The notes below the pieces were generated by a model. It ran no database searches. It saw nothing but the letters and a program-made list of their open reading frames with translations, and was not told the origin of the DNA. 64,000 nt of DNA, taken from NCBI GenBank assembly GCA_963710535.1, contig CAVQAW010000001.1, forward strand, positions 410 to 64,409, in the 5' to 3' direction. Within the stretch, counting starts at the first letter, position 1. Every line of letters starts with the position of its first letter. This DNA is from an uncultured Flavobacteriaceae bacterium. GTDB taxonomy: Bacteria; Bacteroidota; Bacteroidia; Flavobacteriales; Flavobacteriaceae. Positions 30,618 to 64,000 of the stretch are shown piece after piece. Made by a program: the position numbers and the translations under genes.

Positions 30618-30719
30618 AACATAATACGCTTCTTCCGGATTATGATAATTGTCATAGTTGTCTTTATGCACGCTTGTTAAATTAGCCCGAAGTACCCATC
30701 ATCCTCTAAAAACATATTC

Positions 30720-32570: not shown

Positions 32571-32585
32571 CCGCACCTTCCATCC

Positions 32586-35671: not shown

Positions 35672-35679
35672 ATCTTCAA

Positions 35680-37311: not shown

Positions 37312-37337
37312 TTTATTTTTTGTTTTTAGAATACGTT

Positions 37338-39075: not shown

Positions 39076-39262
39076 GTCGAGACCTATCGCTGCTGCAAAA
39101 TAACGAAACCAATTTCGATTAGCTCCCCTATACGACCAATTTTGCGATCGTTGCCCTGATCAAAATGGATTTCCATCATTTTCACGATCGCACTTCACAA
39201 AATTGCATGTATCTTCATTCTTCGTTTCAAACGACATCGGACCAACAGTAAAAACCAACCCC

Positions 39263-47152: not shown

Positions 47153-47293
47153 GCCTAATTAATTGACCCCGTTCCATGCCGATGAAGCAATTTCCATGAA
47201 GTACCATGCCCCGTGATGGTAGTTAAAGTTTAGGGGGTTAGTCCAATGAAGTGTTAATATTTTGTTAGATTTGAGGTTCAACCCAAATGAGAA

Positions 47294-49705: not shown

Positions 49706-49742
49706 GGGCTTTAGGACTTCAAGCGCTGTTGCACACTTCCCT

Positions 49743-50849: not shown

Positions 50850-50857
50850 AGGATGCT

Positions 50858-50875
50858 TAATTTTGAACAAAATTA
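50858..50875. promoter_or_regulatory. Two overlapping divergent -7 elements forming a palindrome
   Basis: TAATTTTG-AA-CAAAATTA within the 35-bp gap between the divergent genes. Confidence 0.6.
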
Positions 50876-50884
50876 CATCCAAAA

Positions 50885-52108
50885 ATGAAGAAATATACCT
50901 ACTTGGCCCTGTTTTTATGCCTGGCCCTGGGCTGCAAAAAAGAAAAGTCGGCCTCCGTGAGCCTTCAGGAAGACGTCAGTTTTCTCGCCAGCGACGCCCT
51001 GGGCGGCAGGGAAACGGGCACGGAGGGCGAACAGTTGGCCGCCGAATACATCCAGGAAAGAATGGCTGCTTTGGGCCTATCGCCCAAAGGCAATGCCGGC
51101 ACTTTTTACCAGACCTTCACCTTCAAGCCCAAAAAAGATCCCCATTCAGAAGTACAATATACCGCGGGCGACAGCACCATCACCGGCACCAACGTCATCG
51201 GGTATCTCGACAACCAGGCCTCGAACACCATCGTGATCGGAGCCCATTACGACCATCTGGGCATGGGGGGCGAAGGCTCGCTGTACCGGGAAGGTAAGGC
51301 CGTCCACAACGGGGCCGACGACAATGCCAGCGGGGTGGGCCTGCTGCTGCACCTGGCCGACACCCTGCAGGGCATCGATAAGGGCAACAATTACCTGTTC
51401 ATCGCCTTTTCCGGGGAAGAGATGGGGCTGCTCGGCAGCAATTATTTCGTAAAAAACCCGACCATCGACCTAAACAAGGTCGATTATATGCTGAACATGG
51501 ACATGGTGGGCCGGCTGCGCGACGACCAGACCCTGGCCATCAGCGGTACCGGTACCTCCCCGATCTGGGCGCAGGTGCTGAATGCCGCCAACCCCGGCTT
51601 TAAATTGGTGCTCGACGAATCGGGGGTAGGGCCCTCCGACCATACTTCCTTCTATTTGCAGGACATCCCGGTGCTCCATTTTTTTACCGGGCAGCACGAA
51701 GACTACCACAAGCCTTCCGATGATTCCGGAAAGCTAAACTATGTGGGGATGCAAAAGATCGGCAGCTATATCGTCGCGGTGATCGGGGAACTCGATGACG
51801 ACCCCAAACTCACCTTTAAGAAAACCAAGAACGAAAGCGAAGAAGTGCCCCGCTTCAAGGTGGCCCTGGGCGTGGTGCCCGATTACCTCTTTGATGGAAA
51901 AGGGATGCGGATCGACGGCATCAGCGAGGGCAAGGCCGCCCAGAAGGCGGGGCTTCAGAAGGGTGATATCGTGATCCAGCTGGGCGATAGCGCGGTGGTC
52001 GACATGATGTCGTACATGCGGGCGCTCTCCACTTTTGAGGAAGGCAACAGCACCAATGTGATCGTGGATCGCCAAGGCGAAAGGATGCTCTTTCCCGTTA
52101 GCTTCTAA
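50885..52108 (+). CDS. M28 family peptidase with a C-terminal PDZ domain (lipoprotein)
   Basis: 'GAHYDHLG', 'NGADDNASG', 'FSGEEMGLLGS', 'LNMDMVGR', 'DYHKPSD', PDZ 'LGVVPDY'. Confidence 0.92.
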   Translation: MKKYTYLALFLCLALGCKKEKSASVSLQEDVSFLASDALGGRETGTEGEQLAAEYIQERMAALGLSPKGNAGTFYQTFTFKPKKDPHSEVQYTAGDSTITGTNVIGYLDNQASNTIVIGAHYDHLGMGGEGSLYREGKAVHNGADDNASGVGLLLHLADTLQGIDKGNNYLFIAFSGEEMGLLGSNYFVKNPTIDLNKVDYMLNMDMVGRLRDDQTLAISGTGTSPIWAQVLNAANPGFKLVLDESGVGPSDHTSFYLQDIPVLHFFTGQHEDYHKPSDDSGKLNYVGMQKIGSYIVAVIGELDDDPKLTFKKTKNESEEVPRFKVALGVVPDYLFDGKGMRIDGISEGKAAQKAGLQKGDIVIQLGDSAVVDMMSYMRALSTFEEGNSTNVIVDRQGERMLFPVSF

Positions 52109-52116
52109 ATTTTCAT

Positions 52117-52124
52117 TAATTTTG
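52117..52124 (+). promoter_or_regulatory. -7 promoter element (TAATTTTG) for dusB
   Basis: TAnnTTTG match 21 nt before the GTG start. Confidence 0.55.
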
Positions 52125-52145
52125 CACCCTGAAACCTTTTAAAAA

Positions 52146-53150
52146 GTGCCCTTGCCGAAAATAGGAGACATACAATTGCCCGAGTTCCCCTTGTTGCTCG
52201 CCCCGATGGAGGATGTGAGCGACCCGCCCTTCCGCGCCCTGTGCAAGGAGCAGGGGGCCGATCTGGTCTATACCGAGTTCATTTCCTCGGAGGGGCTGAT
52301 CCGCGATGCGGCCAAAAGCGTGATGAAGCTCGACATCTATGAAAAGGAACGCCCGGTGGGCATACAGATCTTTGGGGCCAATCTCGATTCGATGCTGCAG
52401 ACGGTGGAAATCGTGGAAAAATCGAAACCCGATATCATCGACATCAACTTTGGCTGTCCGGTGAAAAAGGTGGTCAGCAAAGGGGCCGGGGCCGGCATTT
52501 TGAAAGACATCGACCTGATGGTCTCCCTGACCGAGGCCATGGTAAAGCATACCCATTTGCCCATTACCGTGAAGACACGCCTGGGCTGGGACCATGATTC
52601 GATCAGGATCGTGGAGGTGGCCGAACGGCTGCAGGACGTGGGCTGCAAGGCCATTTCGATCCATGGCCGTACGCGCGCCCAAATGTACAAGGGCGAGGCC
52701 GATTGGAGGCCCATTGCCGAAGTAAAGAACAACCAAAGGATGCACATTCCCGTTTTCGGGAACGGGGACGTCGATTCGCCCGAGGCCGCCATGACCATGC
52801 GCGACCAGTACGGCTTGGACGGGGCCATGATCGGCCGCGCCAGTATAGGCTATCCCTGGTTCTTCAGGGAAGTGAAGCACTTTTTCAAAACGGGAACCTA
52901 CCTCAGTCCGCCCAGCATGGAAGAACGGGTAGCGGTGGCCAGAAGGCACCTGCAGATGGCCATCGATTGGAAGGGCGAGCAATTGGGCGTTTTTGAGACC
53001 CGCCGCCATTATACGAATTACTTCAAGGGGATTCCCGATTTTAAGGAATATCGGATGAGAATGGTTACCAGCGACCGGGCCAGCGATGTTTTTGAGGCCT
53101 TCGATGCGGTATTGGAAAACTTCGCCGACCACGAGTTCGTGCTCTCCTAA
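52146..53150 (+). CDS. dusB: tRNA-dihydrouridine synthase B
   Basis: 'LAPMEDV', 'IDINFGCP', 'TVKTRLGW', 'IHGRT', 'GNGD', 'MIGRA'. Confidence 0.93.
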   Translation: MPLPKIGDIQLPEFPLLLAPMEDVSDPPFRALCKEQGADLVYTEFISSEGLIRDAAKSVMKLDIYEKERPVGIQIFGANLDSMLQTVEIVEKSKPDIIDINFGCPVKKVVSKGAGAGILKDIDLMVSLTEAMVKHTHLPITVKTRLGWDHDSIRIVEVAERLQDVGCKAISIHGRTRAQMYKGEADWRPIAEVKNNQRMHIPVFGNGDVDSPEAAMTMRDQYGLDGAMIGRASIGYPWFFREVKHFFKTGTYLSPPSMEERVAVARRHLQMAIDWKGEQLGVFETRRHYTNYFKGIPDFKEYRMRMVTSDRASDVFEAFDAVLENFADHEFVLS

Positions 53151-53165
53151 AGGCCCGTTTATGGC

Positions 53166-54362
53166 CTAAGCCAACAATTTTCTGTTCACCCTGCCACTGG
53201 CGATTTTTGCCGCGATGACGCCCAGCACCACGATGGTGGCCAGAACGATGAGCACGTTAAATACCTGGAATTCCACCGGGTAGGCCAGGGAGGGTGTGAT
53301 CCTCAGCCAGCCGAAGGCCAGTTGCGAGAGGATGAGCAAAGATCCCAAGAGCACCCCGATGAGGCCGCCGAAACCGGTCACCAGCACCCCCTGTACAAAA
53401 TAGATGCGCCGCAGCTCCCTTAGGGTGGTGCCGAGGGCAAAGAGCGTTTTTGAGTTCTGTTGCTTGTCGAGGATCATCATGGTAATGGCCCCCACCACGT
53501 TGAAGAGCGCGATTACGAGCACCAGGGTAAAGATCAGGTAGGTGGCCAGGTTTTCGGTGTTCAGCATGCGGTACAGGGTGCTGTTGAGCTCCCTGCGGTC
53601 TTTGACGATCACCTTGCCGCCGAAGAGGGTCTCGATCTTGTTTTTGAGGGCGGGGACATCTGCCGTTTCCCTGACTTTAAAATCGATGCCCGAGATCTGG
53701 GTACTGTCTTTTTCGAGGAGGGCCTGGACCAGCGGCAGTTCGGCGAAGACGTATTTTTTATCGAGGTTTTCCTCTATGGTAAAGACCCCGCTGAGCACCA
53801 GCGGCATTTGGTTGTAGGGCTTCCGTTCCTGGGAGATGGAGCCTTTGCCCGGTTTGGGGGCGTACACGATCATGGGGTTCTGGAACTGGTTGGTGGCCAG
53901 GCCGAGGAGGTTGGCGATCTCGAGGCCCGCCACGCCCTGCAGCGCATTGAGCGTCCACTGACCATAGCGCACGATGCTGTCGACGCCGGTGACCTTTACA
54001 TAGTTGGTATCGACGCCCTTGATCAGGGCGATATGGCTCTTTTGTTGGTAGGTGAGGTATACCTTTTCTTCCAGTTCCTTGGAATAGGCGGCGAGGTCGT
54101 AAATGTTGGCCAGGGTTTCCTCCTGTTCGGGGGAGATGCTAAAAAACTTGCCGGTGGCCGGGAGGGCTTTCAGGTCGGGATCGAAGGCATTGCTGAAGGA
54201 CAGGCTGAAGGTTTTCAGGCCGGCAAAGCCCGAAAGCACGATAAAGAGGGCCGCCGAACCGATGACGATCACGATAAAGGTGATCAGGTTGATGATGTTC
54301 ACCGCATTCTGACTGCTTTTGGAACGCAGGTAGCGCTTGGCGATATAGAGCGGGAAATTCAA
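53166..54362 (-). CDS. LolC/E-FtsX-like ABC transporter permease
   Basis: 'IAKRYL.SKS', large periplasmic domain, C-terminal transmembrane helices with 'IALFNVVGAITMMILDK...LFALG'. Confidence 0.88.
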   Translation of the reverse strand: MNFPLYIAKRYLRSKSSQNAVNIINLITFIVIVIGSAALFIVLSGFAGLKTFSLSFSNAFDPDLKALPATGKFFSISPEQEETLANIYDLAAYSKELEEKVYLTYQQKSHIALIKGVDTNYVKVTGVDSIVRYGQWTLNALQGVAGLEIANLLGLATNQFQNPMIVYAPKPGKGSISQERKPYNQMPLVLSGVFTIEENLDKKYVFAELPLVQALLEKDSTQISGIDFKVRETADVPALKNKIETLFGGKVIVKDRRELNSTLYRMLNTENLATYLIFTLVLVIALFNVVGAITMMILDKQQNSKTLFALGTTLRELRRIYFVQGVLVTGFGGLIGVLLGSLLILSQLAFGWLRITPSLAYPVEFQVFNVLIVLATIVVLGVIAAKIASGRVNRKLLA

Positions 54363-54364
54363 GT

Positions 54365-54757
54365 TTACAGCTTTTTTCTTTTGGCCAGCAGATCGCGGTT
54401 CTCGATGGGGTTTTCCTCCCCTTTGAGCGATTTATCGATGTTCTCGATATAGTCGAGCGAATCGTCGAGGTAGAAAAGCAGTTGGGGCACCCGCCGCAAC
54501 TGGTGCCTGGTGCGCTGCGCGAGTTCGTGCTTGATCAGGGGCTGGTTCGATTTGATGCCCTCCATGAGTTCCCCGGCCTGTTTGGTGGGAAAGATGCTGA
54601 GGTATACTTTGGCGATGGAAAGATCGGTGGTCACCGTTACCTTGGAGACCGAGATGATCACGCTGCGCAGCCCGCCATCGATGGCGGCGCGCTGTAAAAT
54701 ATCGACGATGTCTTTTTGGATGACCCCCGCTATCTTTTTCTGTCGTTGTGTTTCCAT
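54365..54757 (-). CDS. rbfA: Ribosome-binding factor A
   Basis: 'RQKKIA..IQ', 'V.VT.DLSIAKVY', 'LRRVPQL.FYLDDS'. Confidence 0.95.
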   Translation of the reverse strand: METQRQKKIAGVIQKDIVDILQRAAIDGGLRSVIISVSKVTVTTDLSIAKVYLSIFPTKQAGELMEGIKSNQPLIKHELAQRTRHQLRRVPQLLFYLDDSLDYIENIDKSLKGEENPIENRDLLAKRKKL

Positions 54758-54761
54758 AGGG

Positions 54762-54769
54762 CAAAAATA
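54762..54769 (-). promoter_or_regulatory. -7 promoter element (TATTTTTG) for rbfA
   Basis: CAAAAATA on the + strand, only 4 nt from the ATG. Confidence 0.5.
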
Positions 54770-54827
54770 CGGAGAATTAACTGTAAATTAGGGCAGATGA
54801 ACCCGAGAGGGCCAAAAAACCACGGAT

Positions 54828-55229
54828 TTGAAGAAAATAGAGCACATCGGCATCGCCGTAAAAGACCTTGAAGCCTCCAATGCGCTGTTCGAGAAGCTGC
54901 TGGGGGCGCCGGCCTACAAGACCGAAACGGTGGCCTCGGAGGGCGTGCGCACGGCCTTTTTCGGGGCGGGCCCCAACAAGGTGGAACTGCTGGAAGCCCT
55001 GAACGATGCCAGTCCGGTGGCCAAGTTCCTCGAGAAAAGGGGGGAGGGCGTGCACCATATCGCCTTTTTGGTCGACGACATCGTGGCCGAGCTCGCCCGT
55101 TTGAAAAAGGAGGGTTTTGTGCTATTGAACGAGGTGCCCAAAAAGGGGGCCGACAACAAGTGGGTGGCCTTCGTGCACCCTAAATCGGCCAACGGGGTTT
55201 TGGTGGAACTGTGCCAGGAGATCGAATAG
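54828..55229 (+). CDS. mce: Methylmalonyl-CoA epimerase
   Basis: 'IEHIGIAV', 'EGVRTAF', 'KVELLE', 'GEGVHHIAF', 'FVHPKSANGVLVELCQ'. Confidence 0.92.
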   Translation: MKKIEHIGIAVKDLEASNALFEKLLGAPAYKTETVASEGVRTAFFGAGPNKVELLEALNDASPVAKFLEKRGEGVHHIAFLVDDIVAELARLKKEGFVLLNEVPKKGADNKWVAFVHPKSANGVLVELCQEIE

Positions 55230-55292
55230 CACAAAGGCCTTAAAGTTGTTGTGGCTGTGTAAAATAAGTGGTAATATTGCAGACCTAAAACC

Positions 55293-55366
55293 GGTCCTAT
55301 AGCTCAGTTGGTTAGAGCACCTGACTCATAATCAGGTGGTCCCTGGTTCGAGCCCAGGTGGGACCA
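55293..55366 (+). tRNA. tRNA with CAT anticodon, probably tRNA-Ile2 (lysidine) rather than Met
   Basis: Cloverleaf GGTCCTA/TGGGACC, anticodon arm CCTGA-CTCATAA-TCAGG. C4:G69 and C5:G68 pairs are the known TilS identity elements, and the initiator GGG/CCC anticodon-stem signature is absent. Confidence 0.9.
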
Positions 55367-55378
55367 CATCAAGCAGCA

Positions 55379-55410
55379 AACCCCGCGCAAATGCGCGGGG
55401 TTATTTTTTG
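55379..55410 (+). terminator. Intrinsic terminator after the tRNA
   Basis: AACCCCGCGC-AAAT-GCGCGGGGTT followed by ATTTTTT. Confidence 0.8.
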
Positions 55411-55699
55411 GAAATTCCCGTACAAAAACTTGTTTTTGTAAGGGAGTGAACAAAAAAGAAACGCAGCCCGCCAGGGCTGTGCGGGTTGCTATTTGCAGGA
55501 GCGGGCCTTCTCTGGTCGATTCGCGTAGCGAATGAACCCAGGTGACTTTCAAAATGAATTAAAGAGAAACATTTTGCCGTTTACGGTCAAGGGCGAGAAG
55601 TTTAACCTGCCAAGGGAGATGGCCTATAGAGTTAACCCGAGCATTAATTAAATTCATTGTCGAAAACAGTATCTTCGGTACCATCAAAAAAAATGCACC

Positions 55700-55990
55700 A
55701 TGCCCGAAAGCAACAAATCCAGTTCTTGGATAAACATTTTGAGCGAACTTGTGGAAGCCTTTTTTAAGAGCAGCCGGCAAAGCAAGCGAGGCAGGACCTG
55801 GCACCAGCACGTGGTGCCCTACGAGGACAGGTGGGCCGTAAGGCGTGAGGGGAACAAACGCATCACCTCCAAACACCGCCTCCAGGATACGGCCATCAAC
55901 AAAGCAAAACGCCTGGCCAGAAAATACAAGGCCGATGTGATCATCCATAGGGAGGATGGGACGATACGGGATCGTATTGGGTATGATTGA
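55700..55990 (+). CDS. DUF2188 domain protein
   Basis: 'QHVVPYEDRWAVRREG...S.H..Q..AI..A...A.....VIIHREDGTIRD'. Confidence 0.85.
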   Translation: MPESNKSSSWINILSELVEAFFKSSRQSKRGRTWHQHVVPYEDRWAVRREGNKRITSKHRLQDTAINKAKRLARKYKADVIIHREDGTIRDRIGYD

Positions 55991-56040
55991 AGTATGCCCG
56001 AGGGTCGGGCAGGCCATTTTAATTACCCTTTTTTTCTTTT

Positions 56041-56420
56041 TGTCTCTTTTTGCTTGTCCAAAAAGAGACGCAAAAAGGACACTTTTTCGTTAGGTGTTTC
56101 CCATTCGCTGGCGCTCATGGGAACCGCTCGCACGGGCTGAACGCGGTCCAGGGCTTCCCGCGTTCTAGACGCCCCTGATCGCTACACTACAGAAAAAGAT
56201 AACTCTCCAATGACCTTTTGGGGTAAAAGACCCGGCCTATTTTTGTTTTTGCCAGAAATCAAGGGATTTTCACCTGGGTTTCAGGGAAGCCATCCATAGA
56301 GCATTCCGAGCATCGGAAGCGGCCTGGATGGTGCGGCCGTGGAAATCGCGTAGATTTCAAGAAAAGAAAAATCAGCCTAGACTTTTTTGTTTCTTTTTTT
56401 GGCGATGAAAAAAAGAAAAG
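56041..56420 (+). repeat. Structured non-coding modular repeat, copy 1 (complete unit)
   Basis: Begins CTTTTTGCTTGTCCAAAAAG (56046) and ends CTTTTTTTGGCGATGAAAAAAAG (56393-56415); multiple internal hairpins. Confidence 0.9.
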
Positions 56421-56445
56421 GATATTAAGAATTATTTTTTTCTCT

Positions 56446-56803
56446 TGCCTCTTTTTGCTTGTCCAAAAAGAGGCGCAAAAAGGACACTTTTTCGTTAGGT
56501 GTTTCCCATTCGCTGGCGCTCATGGGAACCGCTCGCACGGGCTAAACGCGGTCCAAGGCTTCCCGCGTTCTAAACGCCCGTGCTCGCTACACTACAGAAA
56601 AAGGAACTCCCCAATGAACTTTTGGGCAAAAGAACCGGCCTATTTTTGTTTCTGCAGAAATCAAGGGATTTTCACCCAGAAGGGAAGCCATCCATAGAGC
56701 ATTCCGAGTTCGGAAGCGCTGGATGCGCGGCGTGGAAATCGCGTAGATTTCGAGCAACGAAAAAGAGCATGTTTTGTTTCTTTTTTTGGCGATGAAAAAA
56801 AGC
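56446..56803 (+). repeat. Structured repeat, copy 2 (tandem, 405 bp after copy 1)
   Basis: Same modules in the same order; the 3' half carries several small deletions. Confidence 0.9.
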
Positions 56804-56817
56804 AAGAACCACGGTTT

Positions 56818-56980
56818 CTGCTCTTTTGCTTGTCCAAAAAGAGGCGCAAAAAGGACACTTTTTCGTAGGTGTTTCCCATTCGCTTCGCTCATGGGACCGC
56901 TCTGAACGGTCAAAGGCAAGATGACCCCTATCACTACACTACAGAAAAGTCTTCAAATGCCTCTTTTTGGGCAAAAGAAC
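56818..56980 (+). repeat. Structured repeat, copy 3 (partial, degenerate)
   Basis: Start hairpin at 56823 and a shortened first domain, joined to the exit module. Confidence 0.8.
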
Positions 56981-57085
56981 CGATTCAAACCCACCCCTGG
57001 CCCCTCCCGGGAGGGGAATAGTTTTTAATAGAATTTTAATACTAGCATTGAGGCCTTGTCAGGTCGAGCGGAGTCGAGACCGGCG
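56981..57085 (+). repeat. Exit module: CCCCTCCCGGGAGGGG palindrome, AT linker and REP-like GTCAGGTCGAGCGGAGTCGAGACC
   Basis: Palindrome at 57001-57016 and REP-like motif at 57058-57081; homologous to 60828-60931. Confidence 0.8.
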
Positions 57086-57206
57086 ATGCTGGTATACATC
57101 ATATCTCGTTTTGCTTCGCTAGCTACCTTTGTTCAATTTGTATGTTGAACTCGATAATGCTCGATATAACAAGATATATACTCGATTTTAATTACAGAAT
57201 TTGAGG

Positions 57207-57240
57207 AATGTCGCCTCTCGACTCCGCTCGAGGTGACATT
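57207..57240 (-). repeat. REP-like hairpin, inverted relative to 57058-57081
   Basis: AATGTCGCCTC-TCGACTCCGCTC-GAGGTGACATT; the reverse complement contains GAGCGGAGTCGAG. Confidence 0.75.
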
Positions 57241-57394
57241 GTATTTGGAAAAGACCCCTAAAAGTATCGGGACAGAGCCACTATTCCTGAAAACCTAGCC
57301 TTGGCCGGCCAGGATGCTTGTCAGCGTTAAGAATTGACCATGCTCAAGTTTTTTTGGTAACAAAGTACCGACCCTTTCGTCATATTTAAATAAA

Positions 57395-58267
57395 ATGGAA
57401 ACAACAACAAAAGTGCTTAAAAAACCATCGGAACCTAAGGAAACCTGGAAAACCATCATTATTTTCCTGATTGTGGTTACCATTACAAGTGCCATATTTC
57501 ACTATGCCATAGTGAATTTGTACCCTTCAAGTATTTATATCGGCGGACTTATGTGGTGCCCTGCCATGGCTGCATTCGTTACCTTGAAATGGATGGGAAG
57601 GTCCATTTCTACTTTGCCCTGGGCTTGGAGAAACTGGAAATATATTCGCCTATCTTATTTTATCCCAACCTTGTATGTTATGATCACCTATATCCTCATC
57701 TGGGGCTTTGGATTGGGAGGGTTAACCGATGAAACGAATGTGTTGGAATGGGCCAAAGAACTTGGTTTGGTGGGCATGGGTTCTTTGCCGCCAGGCTTGG
57801 CGGCAATCATTGCGGTTATTTTACTGGGAACCGTTGGGATCATCAGGGCAATGGCAACCACTTTAGGGGAAGAAATCGGTTGGCGTGGATTTTTTATCTT
57901 TGAATTAAGAAAGGTGCTGCCTTTTACGGGCGTTTCGCTTTTTAGTGGAATCGTTTGGGCTTTTTGGCATTGGCCTTTGATCGTATATTATGGCGGAAAT
58001 ATCGCACTAGAGCTGACCACTTTTGTTGTGGTGATCGTATCCATGTCTTTTATGATGACCTATTACACTTTTAAGTCGAACAGCTTATGGCCGGCAGTCC
58101 TCTTCCATGCGGTAAGCAATGTATATATCCAGAAAATATTTCCCCCGTTGACATCAAAAAATGTAGGGGCCGAATACTGGCACGGCGAATACGGAATTAT
58201 GTTTGCCCTTGTCACTTTTTTATTCGGAATCTATTTTTGGAGAAAAGCACGGAAGGAAAATTTATAA
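57395..58267 (+). CDS. CPBP (CAAX protease/Abi) family intramembrane metalloprotease
   Basis: 'GEEIGWRG', 'WAFWHWP', 'FHAVSN'. Confidence 0.9.
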   Translation: METTTKVLKKPSEPKETWKTIIIFLIVVTITSAIFHYAIVNLYPSSIYIGGLMWCPAMAAFVTLKWMGRSISTLPWAWRNWKYIRLSYFIPTLYVMITYILIWGFGLGGLTDETNVLEWAKELGLVGMGSLPPGLAAIIAVILLGTVGIIRAMATTLGEEIGWRGFFIFELRKVLPFTGVSLFSGIVWAFWHWPLIVYYGGNIALELTTFVVVIVSMSFMMTYYTFKSNSLWPAVLFHAVSNVYIQKIFPPLTSKNVGAEYWHGEYGIMFALVTFLFGIYFWRKARKENL

Positions 58268-58283
58268 AAAAACAGCAAAAGAA

Positions 58284-59009
58284 ATGACAATACTTGTAGC
58301 TGGAGCGAGCGGCGCAACGGGGCAACATCTTGTTGTACAATTGCTCAAAAATGGGCATCATGTTAAAGCGGTCGTCCGGTCTGCCGGAAAATTACCGGAA
58401 ACCATTAAAAATGAAAGCCGTTTGACAATCATCGAAGCCAGTATACTGGGCCTCACCGATGTGGAAATGGCCGGTTATGTCAGCGGTTGTGATGCCGTAG
58501 CCTCATGTCTGGGACATAACCTGACCTGGAAGGGTGTGTATGGCCAACCCCGAAGATTGGTGACCGATGCGGCTAGCAGGTTATGTGCCGCCATCAAGGC
58601 AAACAAACCGGACAAGCCTGTTAAATACGTATTGATGAATAGCTCGGGAAACAGTAATCGCGATTTGAACGAACCCATCCCTTTCGGCCAAAAATGCGTT
58701 CTCGCATTGCTGCGATTATTGCTGCCCCCACATGTTGACAATGAGAAGGCGGCAGACTATCTTCGGACCCAAATCGGCCAAAATGATGCCATGATAGAAT
58801 GGGCGGCAGTCCGCCCCGACAGTTTGATCGATGAACCCGATGTTTCGGAATATGAGGTGTACCCTTCCCCAATAAGAAGTGCGATTTTTAATGCGGGAAA
58901 GGTCAGTAGGATCAATGTCGCCCATTTCATGGCCGCTTTGATCGGCAACGAGGAGCTCTGGCGAAAATGGAAGGGACAAATGCCCGTAATTTACAGCAAA
59001 GGGCAGTAG
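58284..59009 (+). CDS. NAD(P)-binding Rossmann protein (atypical SDR)
   Basis: 'ILVAGASGATG', 'VKAVVRS', 'WAAVRP..L', 'SRINVAHFM'; start 58284. Confidence 0.88.
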   Translation: MTILVAGASGATGQHLVVQLLKNGHHVKAVVRSAGKLPETIKNESRLTIIEASILGLTDVEMAGYVSGCDAVASCLGHNLTWKGVYGQPRRLVTDAASRLCAAIKANKPDKPVKYVLMNSSGNSNRDLNEPIPFGQKCVLALLRLLLPPHVDNEKAADYLRTQIGQNDAMIEWAAVRPDSLIDEPDVSEYEVYPSPIRSAIFNAGKVSRINVAHFMAALIGNEELWRKWKGQMPVIYSKGQ

Positions 59010-59017
59010 GGTAGCGG

Positions 59018-59343
59018 TAGAATTCAAGAAAAGAAAAATCAGCCTAGCGTTTTTTGTTTCTTTTTTTGGCGATGAAAAAAAGAAAGAAACATAAAAATAT
59101 TTCTCTTGCCTCTTTTTGCTTGTCCAAAAAGAGACGCAAAAAGGACACTTTTTCGTTAGGTGTTTCCCATTCGCTGGCGCTCATGGGAACCGCTCGCACG
59201 GGCTAAACGCGGTCCAAGGCTTCCCGCGTTCTTCACGCCCTTACTCACTACACTACAGAAAAAGGTAACTCCCCAATGAACTTTTGGGCAAAAGAACCGA
59301 TCCAAACCCACCACTGGCCCCCTACCGGGAGGGGAATAGTTTC
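59018..59343 (+). repeat. Structured repeat, copy 4 (circularly permuted: end hairpin, linker, start hairpin, domain 1, exit module)
   Basis: End hairpin at 59060-59082, start hairpin at 59112, CCCCTACCGGGAGGGG at 59319-59334. Confidence 0.88.
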
Positions 59344-59345
59344 CA

Positions 59346-59373
59346 ACTTCGTCCCTCGTACTTCGTATTTCAA
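59346..59373 (-). repeat. Degenerate heptamer tandem tract (ACGAAGT on the - strand)
   Basis: ACTTCGT CCCTCGT ACTTCGT ATTTCAA. Confidence 0.6.
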
Positions 59374-59383
59374 ACCTTTTGCC

Positions 59384-60253
59384 TTATTTCCTCCTAAAAA
59401 GTTTCTTAACTGCTTTAACACATAACAGCACAAGCAATCCTACCAGGAGCCCCACCAAAAATTCGACGATCAGATCCGGCACGGCAGGGAAGATATGGTG
59501 CAGGAAAGGCAGATTGTGCACAAAGATGCCACCTGAAACCAGCAACAAGGCGATGGTGCCGATCACGGAGAGGGATTTGATCACCCATGGCAGGGCATTC
59601 ACAAAAAATCGCCCGATCTTATCGGAAATGCTGTTCTTCTCACCGTTAAGGTCGATCAAACGGGCTCCGAACTCATCCATGCGGACGATCAGCGCCACAA
59701 GTCCGTACACCCCTACGGTGGCAATCAGTGCTATGAACGATACCACCAAGATCTGATTGAGAAGCGGTTCGTTCATCACGGTACCCAGGGCAATGATCAC
59801 AATTTCGATGGACAAAATAAAATCGGTGAGGATGGCCGATTTGATCTTTGTTTTTTCCAGGGCGAGGATGTCACTTTTAAGGGGGGCCTTAAAATCGGCT
59901 GGAATGGGAGCGTGTGCATGCGGCACGAAGAATTCGTATATTTTTTCGGCCCCTTCATAGGCGAGATAAAGTCCGCCCAGCAGCAGGATCACCGTTACCG
60001 CCAAGGGCAAAAAGGCGCTCAGCAAAAAGGCGATCGGGAGGATCATGATCTTATTGAGCAGCGACCCTTTGGTGATGGCCCAAATCACTGGGAGTTCACG
60101 TTTGGACACAAAGCCGGAGGCTTTTTCCGCATTCACGGCCAAGTCATCGCCCAGTATGCCCGCGGTCTTTTTGGTGGCGACCTTCCCCATGGTGGCCACA
60201 TCGTCTAACAGCGTTGCCACATCATCCAAAACAGCAAAAAATCCTGAAGCCAT
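59384..60253 (-). CDS. DUF808 family inner-membrane protein (YedI-like)
   Basis: 'LLDDVAT..KVA.KKTAGILGDDLAVNA', 'RELPVIW.I.KGS', 'AILTDFILSIEI'; start MASGFF at 60253. Confidence 0.9.
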   Translation of the reverse strand: MASGFFAVLDDVATLLDDVATMGKVATKKTAGILGDDLAVNAEKASGFVSKRELPVIWAITKGSLLNKIMILPIAFLLSAFLPLAVTVILLLGGLYLAYEGAEKIYEFFVPHAHAPIPADFKAPLKSDILALEKTKIKSAILTDFILSIEIVIIALGTVMNEPLLNQILVVSFIALIATVGVYGLVALIVRMDEFGARLIDLNGEKNSISDKIGRFFVNALPWVIKSLSVIGTIALLLVSGGIFVHNLPFLHHIFPAVPDLIVEFLVGLLVGLLVLLCVKAVKKLFRRK

Positions 60254-60304
60254 GGTTTTTCTTTTAGGTTTCAAATATAGATCAGGAAGTTGGATTAGAT
60301 AAAT

Positions 60305-60346
60305 TCGAAGTACAAAGTGGGAAGTAAGAGTTACGAAGTTGGAAGT
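60305..60346 (+). repeat. Degenerate heptamer tandem tract (ACGAAGT on the + strand)
   Basis: TCGAAGT ACAAAGT GGGAAGT AAGAGTT ACGAAGT TGGAAGT. Confidence 0.65.
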
Positions 60347-60414
60347 ACCGATTACACAATATCAATTTGCAAAGTATTATATCGTCCCAATAGTTTTTTG
60401 TTTCTTTTTTTCTT

Positions 60415-60931
60415 TGCTTCTTTTTGCTTGTCCAAAAAGAAGCGCAAAAAGGACACTTTTTCGTTAGGTGTTTCCCATTCGCCGGTGCTCATGGGAACCG
60501 CTCACACGGGCTGAACGCGGTCCAGGGCTAGACGCCCCCGCTCGCTACACTACAGAAAAAGAAGGCCCTGCAATTGCCTTTTGAGGTAAAAAACTGGCCT
60601 ATTTTTGTTTTTGCAAGAAATCAAGGGATTTTCACCCTAGATTAGGGAAGCCATCCATAGAGCATTCCGGTATCGGAAGCGGCCTGGATGGTGCGGCCGT
60701 GGAAATCGCGTAGATTTCAAGAAAAGAAAAATCAGCCTAGCGTTTTTTGTTTCTTTTTTTGGCGATGAAAAAAAGAAAAGACATTAAGAATTATTTTTTT
60801 ATTTGCCTCTTTTTGGGCAAAAGACCCGATCCAAACCCACCCCTGGCCCCTCCCGGGAGGGGAATAGTTTCCAATAGAATTTTAATGCAACCGTTGATGC
60901 CTTGTCAGGTCGAGCGGAGTCGAGACCGGCG
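60415..60931 (+). repeat. Structured repeat, copy 5 (complete unit) plus exit module and REP-like motif
   Basis: Start hairpin at 60420, end hairpin at 60753-60775, palindrome at 60847-60862, GTCAGGTCGAGCGGAGTCGAGACC at 60904-60927. Confidence 0.9.
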
Positions 60932-61048
60932 AACCCGCCCAAGGGCCCCCAAATTCCAATTCCGATCAAAACCTTTGCAGGGTTTCTGGCGGATTTCTTA
61001 TTTTTAGGGTTTCGCAACCCTGCGATCAAAACTTAAAAGAACAAGTCC

Positions 61049-61840
61049 ATGCTAAAAACCACCCTTTCCCTGGGGCTTATCGCCCTGTTGTTCTCTTGTA
61101 AGACCGAACCCAAAAAAGACCAACCCGCGGCCCCGCCCGAAGCGGAGGCAGCGGCCCAAGACGATTGGATAACCCTCTTCGACGGCAGCAGCACGGCCGG
61201 ATGGCGGGCCTACAATGGGGAAGAACTGCCCCCGGGCTGGACCATCAAGGACAGCACCCTGACCTTCGATACGGCCCTGGGACTGGAGCAGAACTATACC
61301 GGCGGCAAGGACATCATCTACGGGGCCGAGATGTTCGACAATTTTGAACTCTCCCTCGATTGGAAACTGCCCGAAGGGGGAAACAGCGGCATTTTTTACC
61401 ATGTAAGGGAAGGCTACGACGGTCCCCCCGTGGTGGCCCCCGAATACCAGTTGATCGATGATGAGAATTATGCGCGCATCCACGACCTTACCGAATACAA
61501 CCTGAGCCTGGGCTATACCGATAAACCGGAAGAGCTGAAACCCCTGCAGCAGACCGGGGCTGATTACGCCATGCACCCCCCCGATCCGGGCAAGATCCTG
61601 CATCCGGTAGGGGAGTGGAACAATACCCGAATCGTTTTTACCCCGGAAATGGTGGAACACTGGCTCAACGGAAAAAAAGTACTATCTTTTGTTCCTTGGA
61701 CCGAGGCCTGGTATGCCCAGAAAAATTCGGACAAGTGGAAGACCAGTCCGGATTACGGCAAGTTCAAGAGCGGCTATATTGCCCTGCAAGACCATTCGAG
61801 TCCGATTTGGTTCAAAAACATCAAGATCAGAAAACTATAA
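61049..61840 (+). CDS. DUF1080 (3-keto-disaccharide hydrolase-like) lipoprotein
   Basis: Lipobox LFSC, 'WITLFDG', 'NSGIFY', 'PEYQLIDD', 'GEWN', 'GYIALQDH...WFKNIKIRKL'. Confidence 0.9.
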   Translation: MLKTTLSLGLIALLFSCKTEPKKDQPAAPPEAEAAAQDDWITLFDGSSTAGWRAYNGEELPPGWTIKDSTLTFDTALGLEQNYTGGKDIIYGAEMFDNFELSLDWKLPEGGNSGIFYHVREGYDGPPVVAPEYQLIDDENYARIHDLTEYNLSLGYTDKPEELKPLQQTGADYAMHPPDPGKILHPVGEWNNTRIVFTPEMVEHWLNGKKVLSFVPWTEAWYAQKNSDKWKTSPDYGKFKSGYIALQDHSSPIWFKNIKIRKL

Positions 61841-61850
61841 CCACCATAAC

Positions 61851-63176
61851 ATGAACAAAAGGGAATTTATCAAGAAAAGTGGCCTGGGGACGGTCGGCCT
61901 CGTGCTCGCCCCCTCATTTTTACAACATGGCATGCAGAAAACAAGGCTGCGCACCGCCCACATCGGGGTGGGGAACATGGGAGGCGAAGACCTCAAGGCC
62001 ATATCCTCCCATAAGTTGGTCGACGTGGTCGCCCTGTGCGACGTCGACGCCAACAACCTCGCCGCGGCGCACAAGCTGCATCCGGGCGCCCGTGTGTTTT
62101 CCGATTACCGCGAGATGCTCAATACCATGGGCAACGACATAGACGCCGTTGTGGTCTCCACCCCTGACCATACCCATGCACCGGCCTCCCTGATGGCCAT
62201 GCACATGGACAAACCGGTATACTGCCAGAAACCGCTCACCCACCATGTGAGCGAGGCCCGGGAAATGAAAAAGGTGGCCGAGGAAAGGAAGCTGGTCACC
62301 CAGATGGGCATACAGGTGCACTCTTTTTACGACTATAAACTGGCCACCCTACTGATACAGTCGGGCATTATCGGCAAGGTACATACGGTAAGGGCCTGGT
62401 CGCCCAAGAATTGGGGCTATGACGGCCCGGTGCCCGAAGGCAGCGACCCCGTACCCGCTACGCTGAATTGGGACCTCTGGCTGGGAACGGCCGCCGAGCG
62501 CCCCTACAAGGAAGGGTATTACCACCCCGGCAACTGGCGCAAACTCATGGATTACGGCTGCGGCACCCTGGGCGATATGGGGGTGCATATTTTCGATACG
62601 CCCTACAACGCCCTGCAGTTGGACGTGCCCCGGACCGTAAAGAACGATTGCCGTCCACCGACAGGGTACGGCTATCCGGAGAAAAACACCGTCACCTATG
62701 AATTTCCTGAAACGCCCTTTACGGCAGAGACCCTCACCTGGGTGTGGTACGACGGGCCAGGGGCCCCACCGGCCCACCCCGACCTGAAATTGCCAGGGGA
62801 CGAAGCCCTGCACGATCAGGGCGCCATGTTCATGGGGGAAAAGGGACGGCTGTACCTCCCTCACTTCCAGAAACTGCCCCAATTGATCGTGGATGGAAAA
62901 TATCAGGAAATGGATATCGAATCGTTCAACCTGGGCGCTCCGGTGCGCGATTATGAGAGCGAAGGGAAAAAACACTACCACCAGTTCGTGGATGCCTGTC
63001 TGGGCAAGGCCGAGTGCTCTGCCCCTTTCTCCTATGCCGCCCGTTTGACGGAAACCATTTTGCTGGGCGTTATCGCCGGCCGTTTTCCCGGGCAAACCCT
63101 GCTTTGGGATGCGGAGAAGGCACAGTTTGAAGTGGAGGCCAACAAATACCTTACGGGAAATTACCGGAAGTTTTAG
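61851..63176 (+). CDS. Gfo/Idh/MocA oxidoreductase with a Tat-like signal
   Basis: Start MNKREFIKKSG at 61851; 'IGVGNMG', 'STPDHTHA', 'YCQKPL', 'DMGVH'. Confidence 0.9.
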   Translation: MNKREFIKKSGLGTVGLVLAPSFLQHGMQKTRLRTAHIGVGNMGGEDLKAISSHKLVDVVALCDVDANNLAAAHKLHPGARVFSDYREMLNTMGNDIDAVVVSTPDHTHAPASLMAMHMDKPVYCQKPLTHHVSEAREMKKVAEERKLVTQMGIQVHSFYDYKLATLLIQSGIIGKVHTVRAWSPKNWGYDGPVPEGSDPVPATLNWDLWLGTAAERPYKEGYYHPGNWRKLMDYGCGTLGDMGVHIFDTPYNALQLDVPRTVKNDCRPPTGYGYPEKNTVTYEFPETPFTAETLTWVWYDGPGAPPAHPDLKLPGDEALHDQGAMFMGEKGRLYLPHFQKLPQLIVDGKYQEMDIESFNLGAPVRDYESEGKKHYHQFVDACLGKAECSAPFSYAARLTETILLGVIAGRFPGQTLLWDAEKAQFEVEANKYLTGNYRKF

Positions 63177-63216
63177 CCCAGATCTTTACGGATGGGACCA
63201 CAATCTAAATAGAAGC

Positions 63217-63250
63217 GGCTTCGAGGTTTTTCAACTTCGAAGCCCTTTTA
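63217..63250 (+). terminator. Possible intrinsic terminator
   Basis: GGCTTCGA-12 nt-TCGAAGCC followed by CTTTT. Confidence 0.5.
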
Positions 63251-63435
63251 GCTTGTGCCCAAATTGTAGGTAGATCAAGCAATATTTTCCTTGTCTTTTT
63301 AAGTCCGGTTGGGTCCATTGAACCGTATTGGATGGATCTGTGTACAAGGTTTTAACTATTTTGGGGCCTTTATATCATGCCGTGATGGTTATCTTTCCCC
63401 ATTCGAATTAGAGAGGATCATTAAAAAAGACACCC

Positions 63436-63804
63436 ATGTATCAGCTCATCGCAAAATGGACGATTTTACCAGGCAAGAAAGAAGAAGCCATTATGGCCAT
63501 TAACAAGCTTGCCACCCTGGTAAAAGAAAAGGAACCGGATACCTTGGCATATCTTCCGCACACGCCCGATTTAAAAGAAATGAACAATCCCACGCCCTTT
63601 GAAGGGGAAATTGTTTTTTTTGAGATTTATAGGGATAAATCGGCTTTCGAAAGGCATTTAAACGGTAGGCCATTTAAAGATTTTGTCCAAAATCATGGCC
63701 ATCTGTTTCTTCGGAATTCAGATGGAAGCACCTTTGTTTTGGTAGAAACATTAAATCCCATGAACGGATTTGTTCGCGAAGATTTGATCAACTGGAATTC
63801 ATAA
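63436..63804 (+). CDS. ABM-like (putative quinol monooxygenase) protein
   Basis: 'AKWTILPGK.EE', 'EPDTLAY', 'FFEIYRDKSAFERHL'. Confidence 0.7.
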   Translation: MYQLIAKWTILPGKKEEAIMAINKLATLVKEKEPDTLAYLPHTPDLKEMNNPTPFEGEIVFFEIYRDKSAFERHLNGRPFKDFVQNHGHLFLRNSDGSTFVLVETLNPMNGFVREDLINWNS

Positions 63805-63863
63805 CGTAATAATATTCAGTGTTTTAGATATTATTGCCGTCATGTGCCAGCGTTCGATATACT

Positions 63864-64000
63864 AAAGGAAAACAATGCCCTCCAAATGACCTCTTTGGGC
63901 AAAGGCCCCGGCCTATTTTTCTTTTTGGCGATGAAAAGAGAAAAGGGCATAAAGAATTGTTTTTTCTTCTGCTTCTTTTTGCCTGTCCAAAAAGAAGCGC
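63864..64000 (+). repeat. Structured repeat, copy 6 (middle hairpin, end hairpin, linker, start hairpin; runs off the window)
   Basis: CTCTTTGGGCAAAGG, then GGCCTATTTTT, CTTTTTGGCGATGAAAAG (63921), and TGCTTCTTTTTGCCTGTCCAAAAAGAAGCG. Confidence 0.8.

Follow-up and report, generated by a model that had tools for sequence, protein, structure and literature searches.

A probable two-domain structured RNA element and its proposed local amplification downstream of a tRNA gene in an uncultured Flavobacteriaceae bacterium

The window (the whole 64,000-nucleotide stretch of contig C1 analysed here) carries near its end a tRNA gene with a CAU anticodon (55293..55366, + strand; Rfam tRNA, 72.6 bits), which is followed by a strong terminator (55379-55402) and forms the conserved upstream border of a variable locus, with a flank that is kept in the genus. 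A small DUF2188 gene (55700..55990, + strand; Pfam PF09954, E 9e-20) is the last gene before a series of repeat units; since a unit fragment is found upstream of this gene in the sister species G001, the gene itself lies within the array. The unit measures about 370-400 bp, has the modular 5' to 3' order hairpin A, domain 1, hairpin C, domain 2 and hairpin B, and lies on the + strand in every window copy.

We built covariance models from the copies (R1 for domain 2, R2 and R3 for the 5' domain) and sampled 401 genomes of the family. In unit 1, the 5' domain (56041..56204, + strand; 204 and 144 bits with R2/R3) comprises hairpin A (11-6-11), a loop pseudoknot in which TGTCC pairs with GGACA, and the four-helix domain 1. 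Hairpin C, as drawn in the first-pass annotation, falls in the linker that follows (56205..56233, +), the most variable stretch of the unit, where it is not conserved and alternative pairings occur. Domain 2 (56234..56380, +; 177 bits with R1) has six helices, with a closing stem of GGCCTATTTTTG.../...AAAAATCAGCC, and is followed by a tail (56381..56445, +) consisting of TAG, a T6 tract, hairpin B with an AT-only stem (TTTCTTTTTTT GGCGATG AAAAAAAGAAA) and an AT-rich linker; such a tail comes after domain 2 in all other genera. Sequence conservation is uneven along the unit and lowest in the linker, and this unevenness suggests that selection acts on each copy.

On relocating the repeat families, we recovered every reported hairpin A start (56046, 56451, 56823, 59112, 60420 and 63975) and hairpin B site (56393, 56780, 59060, 60753 and 63921). 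The earlier description of six co-oriented copies stands for the starts, but complete units number only two or three, the near-complete ones being confined to 56041-56445, 56446-56822 and 60419-60800, and the others are deletion mosaics or truncated. All copies described in what follows lie on the + strand. Unit 2 (56446..56822) has A, domain 1, C, a domain 2 with small deletions, and B, while unit 3 (56823..56975) consists of hairpin A and a domain 1 with an internal deletion and stops at hairpin C. A second repeat, S, is interleaved with the units; the module at 56958..57300 has a GC hairpin and T run (57001-57016), after which comes a MITE-like insert whose inverted ends GTCAGGTCGAGCGGAGTCGAGAC lie at 57059-57083 and 57218-57240. 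Gene block 1 (57395..59009, +; Pfam and synteny), which the sister species G009 lacks, encodes an Rce1-like CPBP protease (57395-58267, +; Pfam) and an NAD(P)H-binding protein (58284-59009, +; Pfam). Directly 3' of its stop codon stand a domain-2 tail (positions 114-144) and hairpin B (59017..59085). Unit 4 (59107..59342) comprises A, domain 1 and C, then a shortened S1, and precedes a DUF808 gene in the opposite orientation (59384..60253, - strand; PF05661, E 2.5e-95). Unit 5 (60419..60800) has A, domain 1, C, domain 2 and B, with an 11-nt deletion in domain 1 that takes out one arm of the third helix. At 60795..60932 the left arm of hairpin A is fused to the right half of hairpin C, with domain 1 lost, and module S follows. 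Gene block 2 (61049..63804, +; Pfam and haplotype comparison) encodes a 3-keto-disaccharide hydrolase (61049-61840), a Gfo/Idh/MocA oxidoreductase (61851-63176) and an ABM monooxygenase (63436-63804), all on the + strand and recognised with Pfam. A domain-1 tail with hairpins C and B but with domain 2 deleted (63868..63950) then precedes the start of unit 6 (63970..64000; R3 match C1:64379-64542), which extends beyond the window, contig C1 terminating inside it.

As previously noted, the unit is missing from the first 55 kb of the window: a BLAST search with the unit against the whole genome placed all copies at C1:56.4-64.5 kb and C10:844-860 kb, the latter, a paralogous or redundant stretch, being the sole other site. 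C1 47.6-63.6 kb is duplicated at the C10 end with many indels; the genome is probably a metagenome bin, and the two stretches may represent two strains or one locus assembled twice. In this genome and the near-complete sister species G001 and G009, the array lies directly downstream of the tRNA gene at one syntenic locus, and in both sister species every copy occupies a matching position between conserved flanks. Units are spaced by 370 bp to several kb, with genes between. These gene blocks are collinear, yet present or absent between species, and the C1 and C10 haplotypes do not carry identical sets either, the ABM gene of block 2 being absent from C10. Mosaic junctions coincide with the common T-tract words CTTTTTG and TTTTTGTTT. 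In addition, paralogues within one genome have diverged to the same degree (0.901) as those from different genomes (0.896), which argues against recent transposition in this clade.

Unit 1 folds far better than shuffled sequences on both strands (z = -4.2). The stem of hairpin A, the closing stem of domain 1 with its TTCCCAT/ATGGGAA and AACGCGG/CCGCGTT helices, and the imperfect closing stem of domain 2 with CCATCCA/TGGATGG and TTCCG/CGGAA, all drawn in the first-pass annotation, covary in other genera. A local GAAATC/GATTTC hairpin that had also been proposed is broken by variants and unsupported; in the domain 2 fold, the partner of GATTTC is the upstream GAAATC (56255-56260) and that of GTGGAAATC is GATTTTCAC. 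Compensatory pairs across genera, the counts of which lean towards structure because the alignments were fitted to the models, amount to 31/46 in domain 2 (17.1 +/- 2.0 in shuffles) and 33/45 in hairpin A plus domain 1 (21.7 +/- 2.4). In the cross-genus alignment of domain 2, covariation reached 0.350, as compared with 0.172 in shuffles and at most 0.10 in slid controls, and an independent RNAalifold run reproduced the fold, its covariation term being -6.0; the corresponding values for hairpin A plus domain 1 were 0.512, 0.179 in shuffles and -7.95. Two observations speak for a genuine signal despite the model-fitted alignments, namely the low values in the slid controls and the outcome of the independent RNAalifold runs. 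Furthermore, the pseudoknot is 94.6% paired across genera, with compensatory changes in three of its four pairs, and domain 1 carries a conserved 11-nt loop, UCCARGGYUUC. It had been reasoned that a lack of covariation and of copies elsewhere would reduce the repeats to a local duplication; with other genera included both are found, whereas within this clade alone covariation is negligible and speaks neither for nor against the fold.

Among wobble pairs in the stems, G.T (G.U) outnumbers A.C by 62 to 6, which indicates that the unit's own (+) strand is the one that folds, although a fold of single-stranded DNA may be formally compatible with this asymmetry. The unit also lacks a known RNA class, as first proposed: Rfam 15 scans yielded only chance-level matches on the units between 55000 and 64000 at E<=1, two tRNAs and nothing else across the whole window at gathering thresholds, and no match on any unit in 15 loci of other genomes (6 of them unit-bearing and from other genera). 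No HEARO-type RNA was matched in these scans, and plasmid and phage collections gave no match to the unit. Taken with the cross-genus covariation of both domains and the pseudoknot, the strand asymmetry and the absent Rfam match make the earlier suggestion of a multicopy large structured non-coding RNA well supported. The element is presumably transcribed, for which the excess of G.T over A.C in the stems and the terminator-like features of the + strand are indirect evidence. Upstream of hairpin A we found no conserved promoter of the Bacteroidetes type (TAnnTTTG), and the lone exact match in the unit (56238) falls within the covarying closing stem of domain 2.

Domain 2 is present in 18 of the 401 sampled genomes, with full-length R1 matches of 95-133 bits in other genera, and the far more widespread 5' domain (hairpin A plus domain 1) in 128 of 401, representing 107 of 302 genera. 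The family to which these structured elements belong reaches at least a third of the Flavobacteriaceae genera sampled. Carriers usually have several copies, often arranged in tandem, and the distribution is patchy, with carriers in 5 of 16 species of the genus studied here. Many genomes of other genera hold multiple dispersed units, in several genera at unrelated sites, and hairpins A and B are there parts of single dispersed RNA-like units, often located between convergent genes. In congeneric species such as G071 and G361, units can occupy orthologous positions. Of the 20 neighbouring genes scanned (10 at this locus and 10 close to units of other genera), all have ordinary metabolic or accessory roles, and there is no TnpA, TnpB, IscB or IS110 gene among them.

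The first-pass annotation had also raised the possibility of a non-autonomous mobile element, for which the genus G275 offers indirect support. There, a MITE of ~320 bp encloses the 5' domain; it has terminal inverted repeats of 14-15 bp (TAACGTSAGTTCGA), is flanked by TA on either side and is present in six copies on different contigs with sharp common borders. Counts of the repeat motif in the G275 genome are 81, versus 11 for a control, and the motif forms +/- pairs 166-700 bp apart. Units that were MITE-like DNA transposons, mobilised by a transposase that is encoded elsewhere and acts in trans, their folds being kept for recognition as DNA or RNA, would also fit the patchy distribution, the multiple dispersed copies and the frequent placement between convergent genes. 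Even so, we consider this origin unlikely. The G275 inverted repeats also bracket other contents of 166-700 bp, and the 5' domain alone is their internal cargo, while in our window their motif occurs at chance level and not once in the array. The window units abut each other or gene blocks without inverted repeats, no target duplications were found at copies in this genome or the sister species, and no recombinase or transposase adjoins the array; one syntenic locus holds all copies in the three near-complete genomes (G000, which is this genome, G001 and G009), in contrast to the dispersed copies of a MITE. The equal divergence of paralogues and the orthologous positions in G071 and G361 also speak against it, and DDE transposases do not read pseudoknotted multi-helix folds with G.U asymmetry. 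Less likely still is a cis-acting role for the RNA in neighbouring genes, as 3'-UTR stabiliser, terminator or insulator module, 5' leader or riboswitch. Such a role would agree with the 19 of 27 units in other genera that lie directly downstream of a co-oriented ORF (mechanical calls, with a modest excess over one half), with the NAD(P)H gene stop codon directly preceding a domain-2 tail and hairpin B, and with the terminator-like GC hairpin and T run on the + strand of S1, which in G003 copies stands between domain 2 and hairpin B and shows one compensatory change. However, tandem units occur with no intervening gene, the genes beside the units are mutually unrelated, and unit orientation stays constant while DUF808, a cyclase and a carboxylase operon all run in the opposite direction.

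Co-oriented copies that punctuate variable gene blocks at a single locus beside a tRNA gene bring to mind an integron-like or Xer/dif-like cassette array, in which the 11-6-11 palindromes A and B, with their arm-spacer-arm layout like tyrosine-recombinase core sites, would serve for site-specific recombination. This seems very improbable to us. The first-pass annotation saw no integrase in the window, and our search agrees: the genome has 11 PF00589 matches (10 above the family cut-off), but none on C1 and none within 100 kb of the C10 array, the nearest C10 match lying at 734 kb, and no IntI tyrosine recombinase lies beside the array. The blocks hold one to three genes or, in G001, about 15 ORFs over 22 kb in both orientations, and junctions fall at T-tract microhomology rather than at one fixed crossover point. 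Covariation in the outer stem of hairpin A fits base pairing and not sequence-specific protein half-sites, and in other genera A and B belong to dispersed RNA-like units. An integron attC site (57-141 bp, paired core sites, single-gene cassettes) does not match multi-domain units of 370-400 bp that often stand in tandem without a gene between. A tRNA-targeted genomic island was likewise rejected, there being no integrase nearby and no tRNA-end direct repeat: no tRNA fragment longer than 10 nt recurs elsewhere in the locus in four arrays, the far border included. A CRISPR array, with identical repeats of 24-48 bp and regular unique spacers, is incompatible with a repeat of ~400 bp spaced by 370 bp to several kb. 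Finally, the end of C1 within a repeat, the indel-rich second copy of its last part on C10 and the near lack of covariation within the clade could hint at a local duplication or assembly artefact with no wider meaning, a reading to which we give next to no credence; it is already refuted by matching arrays in independently assembled bins, short-read assemblies included, and by full-length covarying relatives in more than 100 genera.

We therefore favour, with a probability of roughly 60%, the reading that the window repeats are copies and fragments of an unclassified, two-domain, pseudoknotted structured RNA element that has been amplified locally and whose copies drive the gain and loss of gene blocks. 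The element is bipartite, about 370-400 nt long and folded from the + strand. In its 5' half, the loop of a hairpin with an A/U stem is pseudoknotted to bases immediately 5' of a four-helix domain; its 3' half has six helices, after which come UAG, a U tract and an A/U hairpin, and the middle accepts inserts. Following amplification into a single array downstream of the tRNA gene, the co-oriented copies would be substrates for unequal homologous recombination, which, together with microhomology deletions at T tracts, would generate the mosaics and the gain and loss of gene blocks between species and strains. As to function, our best guess is that a selfish or accessory repeat gives rise to a stable non-coding transcript. 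Because most copies lie 3' of co-oriented genes, the RNA may be made by read-through, with its ends protected by hairpins A and B. We do not think that the element regulates its flanking genes. There is a slim chance that a system for gene capture or mobility, either independent of protein or served in trans, works through this RNA, for instance as a ribozyme-like or RNA-templated element with the 5' and 3' domains bracketing cargo. If so, blocks of the form A-domain 1, genes, domain-2 tail-B would be loaded elements rather than accidental insertions, and the array would be a counterpart of an integron without an integrase.

The structured RNA element favoured here can be compared with several known systems. 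Like chromosomal integron arrays (attC, e.g. VCR), the array has co-oriented, species-typical repeats that punctuate accessory genes at one locus, but it lacks an IntI gene, its blocks are multi-gene and run in both orientations, and its units exceed attC three- to sixfold in length and differ from it in architecture. TA-duplicating MITEs (Neisseria Correia; IS630/mariner-derived) resemble only the G275 carrier of the 5' domain, spread over many contigs; window copies lack inverted repeats and target duplications, the conserved part is an internal fold and not the ends, and, unlike in a typical MITE, the same ends in G275 carry other contents. The omega RNA/HEARO (IscB-TnpB) and the IS110 bridge RNA are, similarly, structured, repeat-linked RNAs (150-300 nt), sometimes without a protein gene, whereas the present element has no TnpB, IscB or IS110 gene among the 20 scanned neighbours, no HEARO match and conserved hairpins at both ends, which leaves the unit without a variable guide segment. 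With pneumococcal BOX A-B-C, enterobacterial BIME and rhizobial RIME it shares intergenic, strongly folding modules that vary in order and number and form mosaics by module deletion and duplication, but those modules are simple hairpins of 40-60 bp, dispersed in tens to hundreds of copies, in contrast to multi-helix domains of 146-165 nt that covary across genera and occupy one locus in the clade. In line with OLE, GOLLD, ROOL and the raiA motif, the element is several hundred nucleotides long, with many covarying helices, a pseudoknot and highly conserved loops, has no obligatory adjacent protein gene and belongs to one bacterial group, sometimes near tRNA genes. Unlike these RNAs, it is without a sequence or structure match in Rfam and is multicopy, often tandem and patchy within a genus, and it is built from two separable domains around an insert-tolerant middle, the 5' domain being commoner than the 3' domain.

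Dividing the first unit (56041-56445) into hairpin A, domain 1 (D1), hairpin C, domain 2 (D2), hairpin B and linker, and mapping each module by BLAST, showed that the units are a real, modular repeat. The six co-oriented hairpin A starts and five hairpin B copies described in the first-pass annotation of 56041-64000 lie at the positions that it gave. Its count of six units was too generous, however, as near-complete copies are found only at 56041-56445, 56446-56822 and 60419-60800, the others being truncated or rearranged. In one rearranged type, A-D1 is followed by another repeat; at 59017-59085 a stop codon directly precedes the tail of D2 and hairpin B, and at about 60795-60830 D1 is lost, the left arm of A being joined to the right half of C. 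The second repeat interleaved with the units, module S (56958-57300), consists of a GC hairpin and T run, then a MITE-like insert with inverted ends GTCAGGTCGAGCGGAGTCGAGAC. It always starts directly after the AAAAGAACCG of hairpin C and ends in a C-like hairpin of its own. Coding potential was rejected for the units, whose ORFs are short and indel-shifted between copies.

We then looked for covariation in the predicted stems. Unit 1 folds with z = -4.2 relative to shuffles, on both strands. Within the clade covariation is negligible (RNAalifold terms -0.01 for D1 and +0.25 for D2), the copies being so alike that double changes occur in two or three pairs only, most of them outer pairs in hairpin A (GCCTC/GAGGC versus GTCTC/GAGAC and GCTTC/GAAGC); across genera, by contrast, it is strong. 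Run on the 401 family genomes sampled, a covariance model of D2 (R1; E-values rough after a short calibration) gave full-length matches, scoring 95-133 bits, in 17 other genomes that represent about 14 genera. In A3, an alignment of 27 of these matches from 10 genomes, fitted to the model as all our cross-genus alignments were, 31 of 46 pairs show compensatory changes against 17.1 +/- 2.0 in shuffles, none of 500 of which reached 31. Both sides are changed in 139 cells versus 44, and the covariation score is 0.350 versus 0.172, falling to 0.07-0.10 when partners are slid by 1-3 columns. A free RNAalifold run on A3 returned essentially the same D2 fold, with a covariation term of -6.0. In other genera, UAG, a U6-7 tract and a homologue of hairpin B come after every D2 match, and a homologue of hairpin A and D1 often lies upstream. 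The D2 stems contain 62 G.T but only 6 A.C combinations, and the folding strand is therefore the unit's own. Two of the hairpins proposed earlier fared less well: GAAATC/GATTTC is disrupted in variants and gives way to a longer helix whose partners lie upstream, and hairpin C is the least conserved stretch of the unit. The idea of D2 as a separate gene driven by a TATTTTTG box at 56238 was rejected, the box lying within a covarying stem. The genus's most divergent copies, loci L052 and L053 of G003, have a canonical GC hairpin and T run between D2 and hairpin B; this insert (CCCTCC...GGAGGG or CCCGCC...GGCGGG, then T9) is terminator-like on the unit's own strand and shows compensatory change.

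The 5' domain was examined in the same manner using R2, a model of hairpin A and D1 with a hand-drawn structure. In A5, its 15 strong matches in D2-bearing loci, 33 of 45 pairs are compensatory versus 21.7 +/- 2.4, covariation is 0.512 versus 0.179 (slid controls 0.08-0.17), and the RNAalifold covariation term is -7.95. Hairpin A, the D1 closing helix and the TTCCCAT and AACGCGG helices of the first-pass annotation are each supported, as is a CACGGGC/GCCCnTG helix, whereas the inner part of the closing helix (67% paired) is not. In other genera, TTCCCAT/ATGGGAA is exchanged for TTTTTAAAA/TTTTAAAAA and AACGCGG/CCGCGTT for AATTATT/AATAATT, and the loop of the AACGCGG helix, UCCARGGYUUC, is conserved. 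Furthermore, the hairpin-A loop UGYCC can form a pseudoknot with GGRCA just 5' of D1, with 94.6% pairing and changes on both sides in three of four pairs. A long closing helix that would pair the A-rich linker (5') with the U-rich tail (3') is not claimed, as no cross-genus covariation was seen by eye. Taken together, these comparisons establish, at the level of sequence, a family-wide element absent from Rfam, with two covarying domains and a pseudoknot, predicted to fold on the plus strand. The multi-helix junction and pseudoknot, with their wobble asymmetry, look like RNA; a fold of single-stranded DNA is a less likely alternative.

As first surmised, the element matches no Rfam class: the units had no match at gathering thresholds or at E<=1, and an Rfam scan of units from other genera likewise returned none. 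Plasmid and phage collections held no match, a metagenome scan with an exact pattern found nothing, and a genome-collection scan recovered the same clade only, all as uncultured Flavobacteriaceae bins. Our literature search found no description of the element. Within the family, R1 matched 18 of 401 genomes (15 of 302 genera), R2, built from this clade, matched 65 (57 genera), and R3, a hairpin A and D1 model built from other genera, matched 128 (107 genera), with 7 of 301 genomes (7 of 144 genera) in the R3 search of the phylum; all are lower bounds because genome sampling used strict filters. Since far more genomes have R2 or R3 matches than R1 matches, the 5' domain is the core of the family and D2 one of several 3' partners. 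The R3 family search found at least seven copies in many genomes, often spread over many contigs and often in tandem, as with three copies of 386-bp period in G404. Outside Flavobacteriaceae matches were sporadic, scoring 72 bits in a second family within the order and 73 bits in a further family within the phylum. Congeners without the element have a different conserved region of ~150 nt with the same tail (GCCUUGA, U7, G and an 11-6-11 A/U hairpin), present once or twice per genome amid island-like genes in G002, G004, G005, G008, G012 and G023 (loci L032-L038 and L044). This region has a covarying long-range stem (CATATTTTAGG with CCTAAAATATG; CATATTCTAGA with TCTAGAATATG) and, after GCCTTGA, T7 and G, the tail hairpin TTTCTTTTTTT ATCAAG AAAAAAAGAAA; it had no Rfam match.

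In the genome studied here (13 contigs, the window being C1:410-64409), all copies are confined to C1:56.4-64.5 kb, where the contig terminates within a repeat copy, and to C10:860.4 to 844.1 kb (minus strand). Between the copies lie ordinary accessory genes, encoding DUF2188, Rce1-like CPBP protease, NAD(P)H-binding and DUF808 (opposite strand) proteins, a 3-keto-disaccharide hydrolase, a Gfo/Idh/MocA oxidoreductase and an ABM monooxygenase. Degenerate heptamer tracts of the ACGAAGT/ACTTCGT type flank the DUF808 gene (59343-59383 and 60275-60360), and a similar tract, gtacgaggtacgaagttcgaagtg, follows the Gfo/Idh/MocA gene on C10 in place of the ABM gene. C1 47.6-63.6 kb (window 47188-63176) aligns to the end of C10 (869297 to 853200, minus strand), with 93% identity, 276 gap positions and frameshifted genes upstream of the array and 98-99% identity in the array itself. 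This overlap could reflect double assembly of a single locus, two strains, poor polishing at a contig end or a true recent duplication. The source genome is probably a metagenome bin, the window overlapping a second contig, and because its closest relatives are uncultured Flavobacteriaceae metagenome bins, we regard C1 and C10 as two haplotypes, distinguished by one whole unit at the array start and by presence of the ABM gene. The C10 array continues for 16 kb, enclosing an adenylate cyclase-TPR gene and an acyl-CoA carboxylase operon (845-849 kb), both on the opposite strand. Immediately upstream of the tRNA next to the array (about 54830-55230) is a gene that looks like one for a glyoxalase-fold methylmalonyl-CoA epimerase; its predicted product and the carboxylase belong to the same pathway, a hint that the carboxylase genes have long resided at the locus and did not arrive as cassettes. 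Elsewhere on C1, a ~2 kb tandem direct duplication of 99.75% identity (window 2225-4257 and 3993-6024; C1:2634-4666 versus 4402-6433) could be a real recent event or an assembly artefact. GC skew turns from negative to positive at about 30000-40000, with only 40 kb to the left of the change; a dif/Xer terminus site was dropped, the signal being weak and origin-like in direction, with dnaA on C8 (463 kb; skew minimum near 520 kb) and other contigs switching too.

The repeat is present in five of the 16 species of the genus. In the near-complete sister species G001 and G009, all copies occupy one locus at the same position, beginning just past the same tRNA, with flanks 84-96% identical to those studied here and copy orientation constant irrespective of gene orientation. 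Gene blocks are collinear across these species and vary by presence or absence: G009 lacks both the cyclase and the CPBP/NAD(P)H block, and a 22-kb stretch of about 15 ORFs occurs in G001 only. Congeners that lack the repeat have, in the 20 kb beyond this tRNA, none of the array genes except a 51%-identical biotin carboxylase homologue in G014. In this clade, then, the array is confined to one syntenic, variable locus with no adjacent mobility gene. Paralogues are about 90% identical, equally within (0.901) and between (0.896) genomes, and the array is therefore older than these species, neither homogenised nor recently expanded. Conservation is uneven along the unit (cores 95-99%, 72-86% around hairpin C), which points to constraint on individual copies. 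Module junctions coincide with short words that T tracts have in common, namely CTTTTTG in A with CTTTTG in C, and TTTTTGTTT at the starts of D2 and B. We infer that the array arose by local duplication of the element and changed by unequal homologous exchange and microhomology deletion between copies, which would turn the site into a hotspot where gene blocks are gained and lost.

One relative is demonstrably mobile. In G275, from another genus, six 5'-domain copies from different contigs can be aligned across about 320 bp and have sharp borders. Their ends are inverted repeats, TAACGTGAGTTCGA... and ...TCGAACTGACGTTA (family terminal inverted repeats TAACGTSAGTTCGA; loci L118-L126), and TA stands on both flanks of every copy, as is typical of MITEs descended from IS630/mariner-type elements. 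The repeat motif is present 81 times versus 11 for a reversed control, in +/- pairs 166-700 bp apart; these ends rest on the alignment and motif count, the inverted-repeat search having been swamped by AT-rich chance pairs. These ends thus enclose other contents as well, with the RNA domain as cargo: one MITE subfamily carries the hairpin A and D1 module. No motif pair has the length of a full insertion sequence, and no full-length partner was seen. The insert of module S, with ends related to those of G275 and inner words CTCGATATAAC and ACTCGATTTTAATT that also resemble that family, is a MITE/REP-like element found at window 57059-57083 and 57218-57240, C10:827138-827826, C10:813508 and C7:438579-438711; one site has seven GTCAGGTCGAGCGGAGTCGAGAC ends, two in one orientation and five, ~80 bp apart, in the other.

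The earlier proposal of a mobile element thus holds for the G275 relative but not for the copies in the window. That the units are themselves MITEs would fit this relative, yet ends of the G275 type are absent from the window array, and we consider this reading unlikely. A cis-acting UTR element appears somewhat less probable still. In its favour, 19 of 27 units in other genera lie immediately 3' of a co-oriented ORF (mechanical calls); against it stands the fixed orientation of copies in the sister species. Units in other genera are often found between convergent genes, and their positions are orthologous in two species of one genus (G071 and G361). Unit pairs in other genera bracket genes for RidA-type proteins, an aminotransferase, a transporter, an amidohydrolase, a dehydrogenase-cytochrome c fusion, a TPR-LuxR regulator and a DinB-like protein, and no transposase, integrase or reverse transcriptase was found among the genes examined. 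A conserved promoter upstream of hairpin A was sought in these genera, and none was found. Integron-like recombination sites would suit gene blocks alternating with repeats, but are very improbable: short-direct-repeat deletion with unequal exchange fits the junctions better than a single fixed crossover site, and, as expected from the first-pass annotation, tyrosine recombinase genes are absent from C1 and from within 100 kb of the C10 array. Att repeats of a tRNA island were likewise rejected, no part of the tRNA recurring at the far border of the locus. An artefact, which the contig overlap might suggest, is scarcely credible beside the syntenic arrays of two near-complete genomes. It seems reasonable to suggest that the element is transcribed. 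Given a family that is patchily distributed, multicopy, frequently in tandem and, in one genus, borne on a MITE, we lean towards a selfish or accessory RNA repeat and away from a housekeeping RNA or a regulator of neighbouring genes.

Flavobacteriaceae are a major group in soil, freshwater and marine habitats, and this candidate new RNA class occurs in at least 107 of the 302 genera sampled. Its predicted secondary structure, pseudoknot and conserved loops make it ready for experiment, and the models could label hundreds of intergenic regions now blank in annotation. Its behaviour is unusual, being multicopy, often tandem, a MITE passenger in one genus and here an array marking a hotspot of accessory-gene turnover, and ties RNA structure to repeat dynamics and genome plasticity. 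To our knowledge, few large bacterial RNAs without an assigned role have many covarying helices, and each of them has started a line of research.
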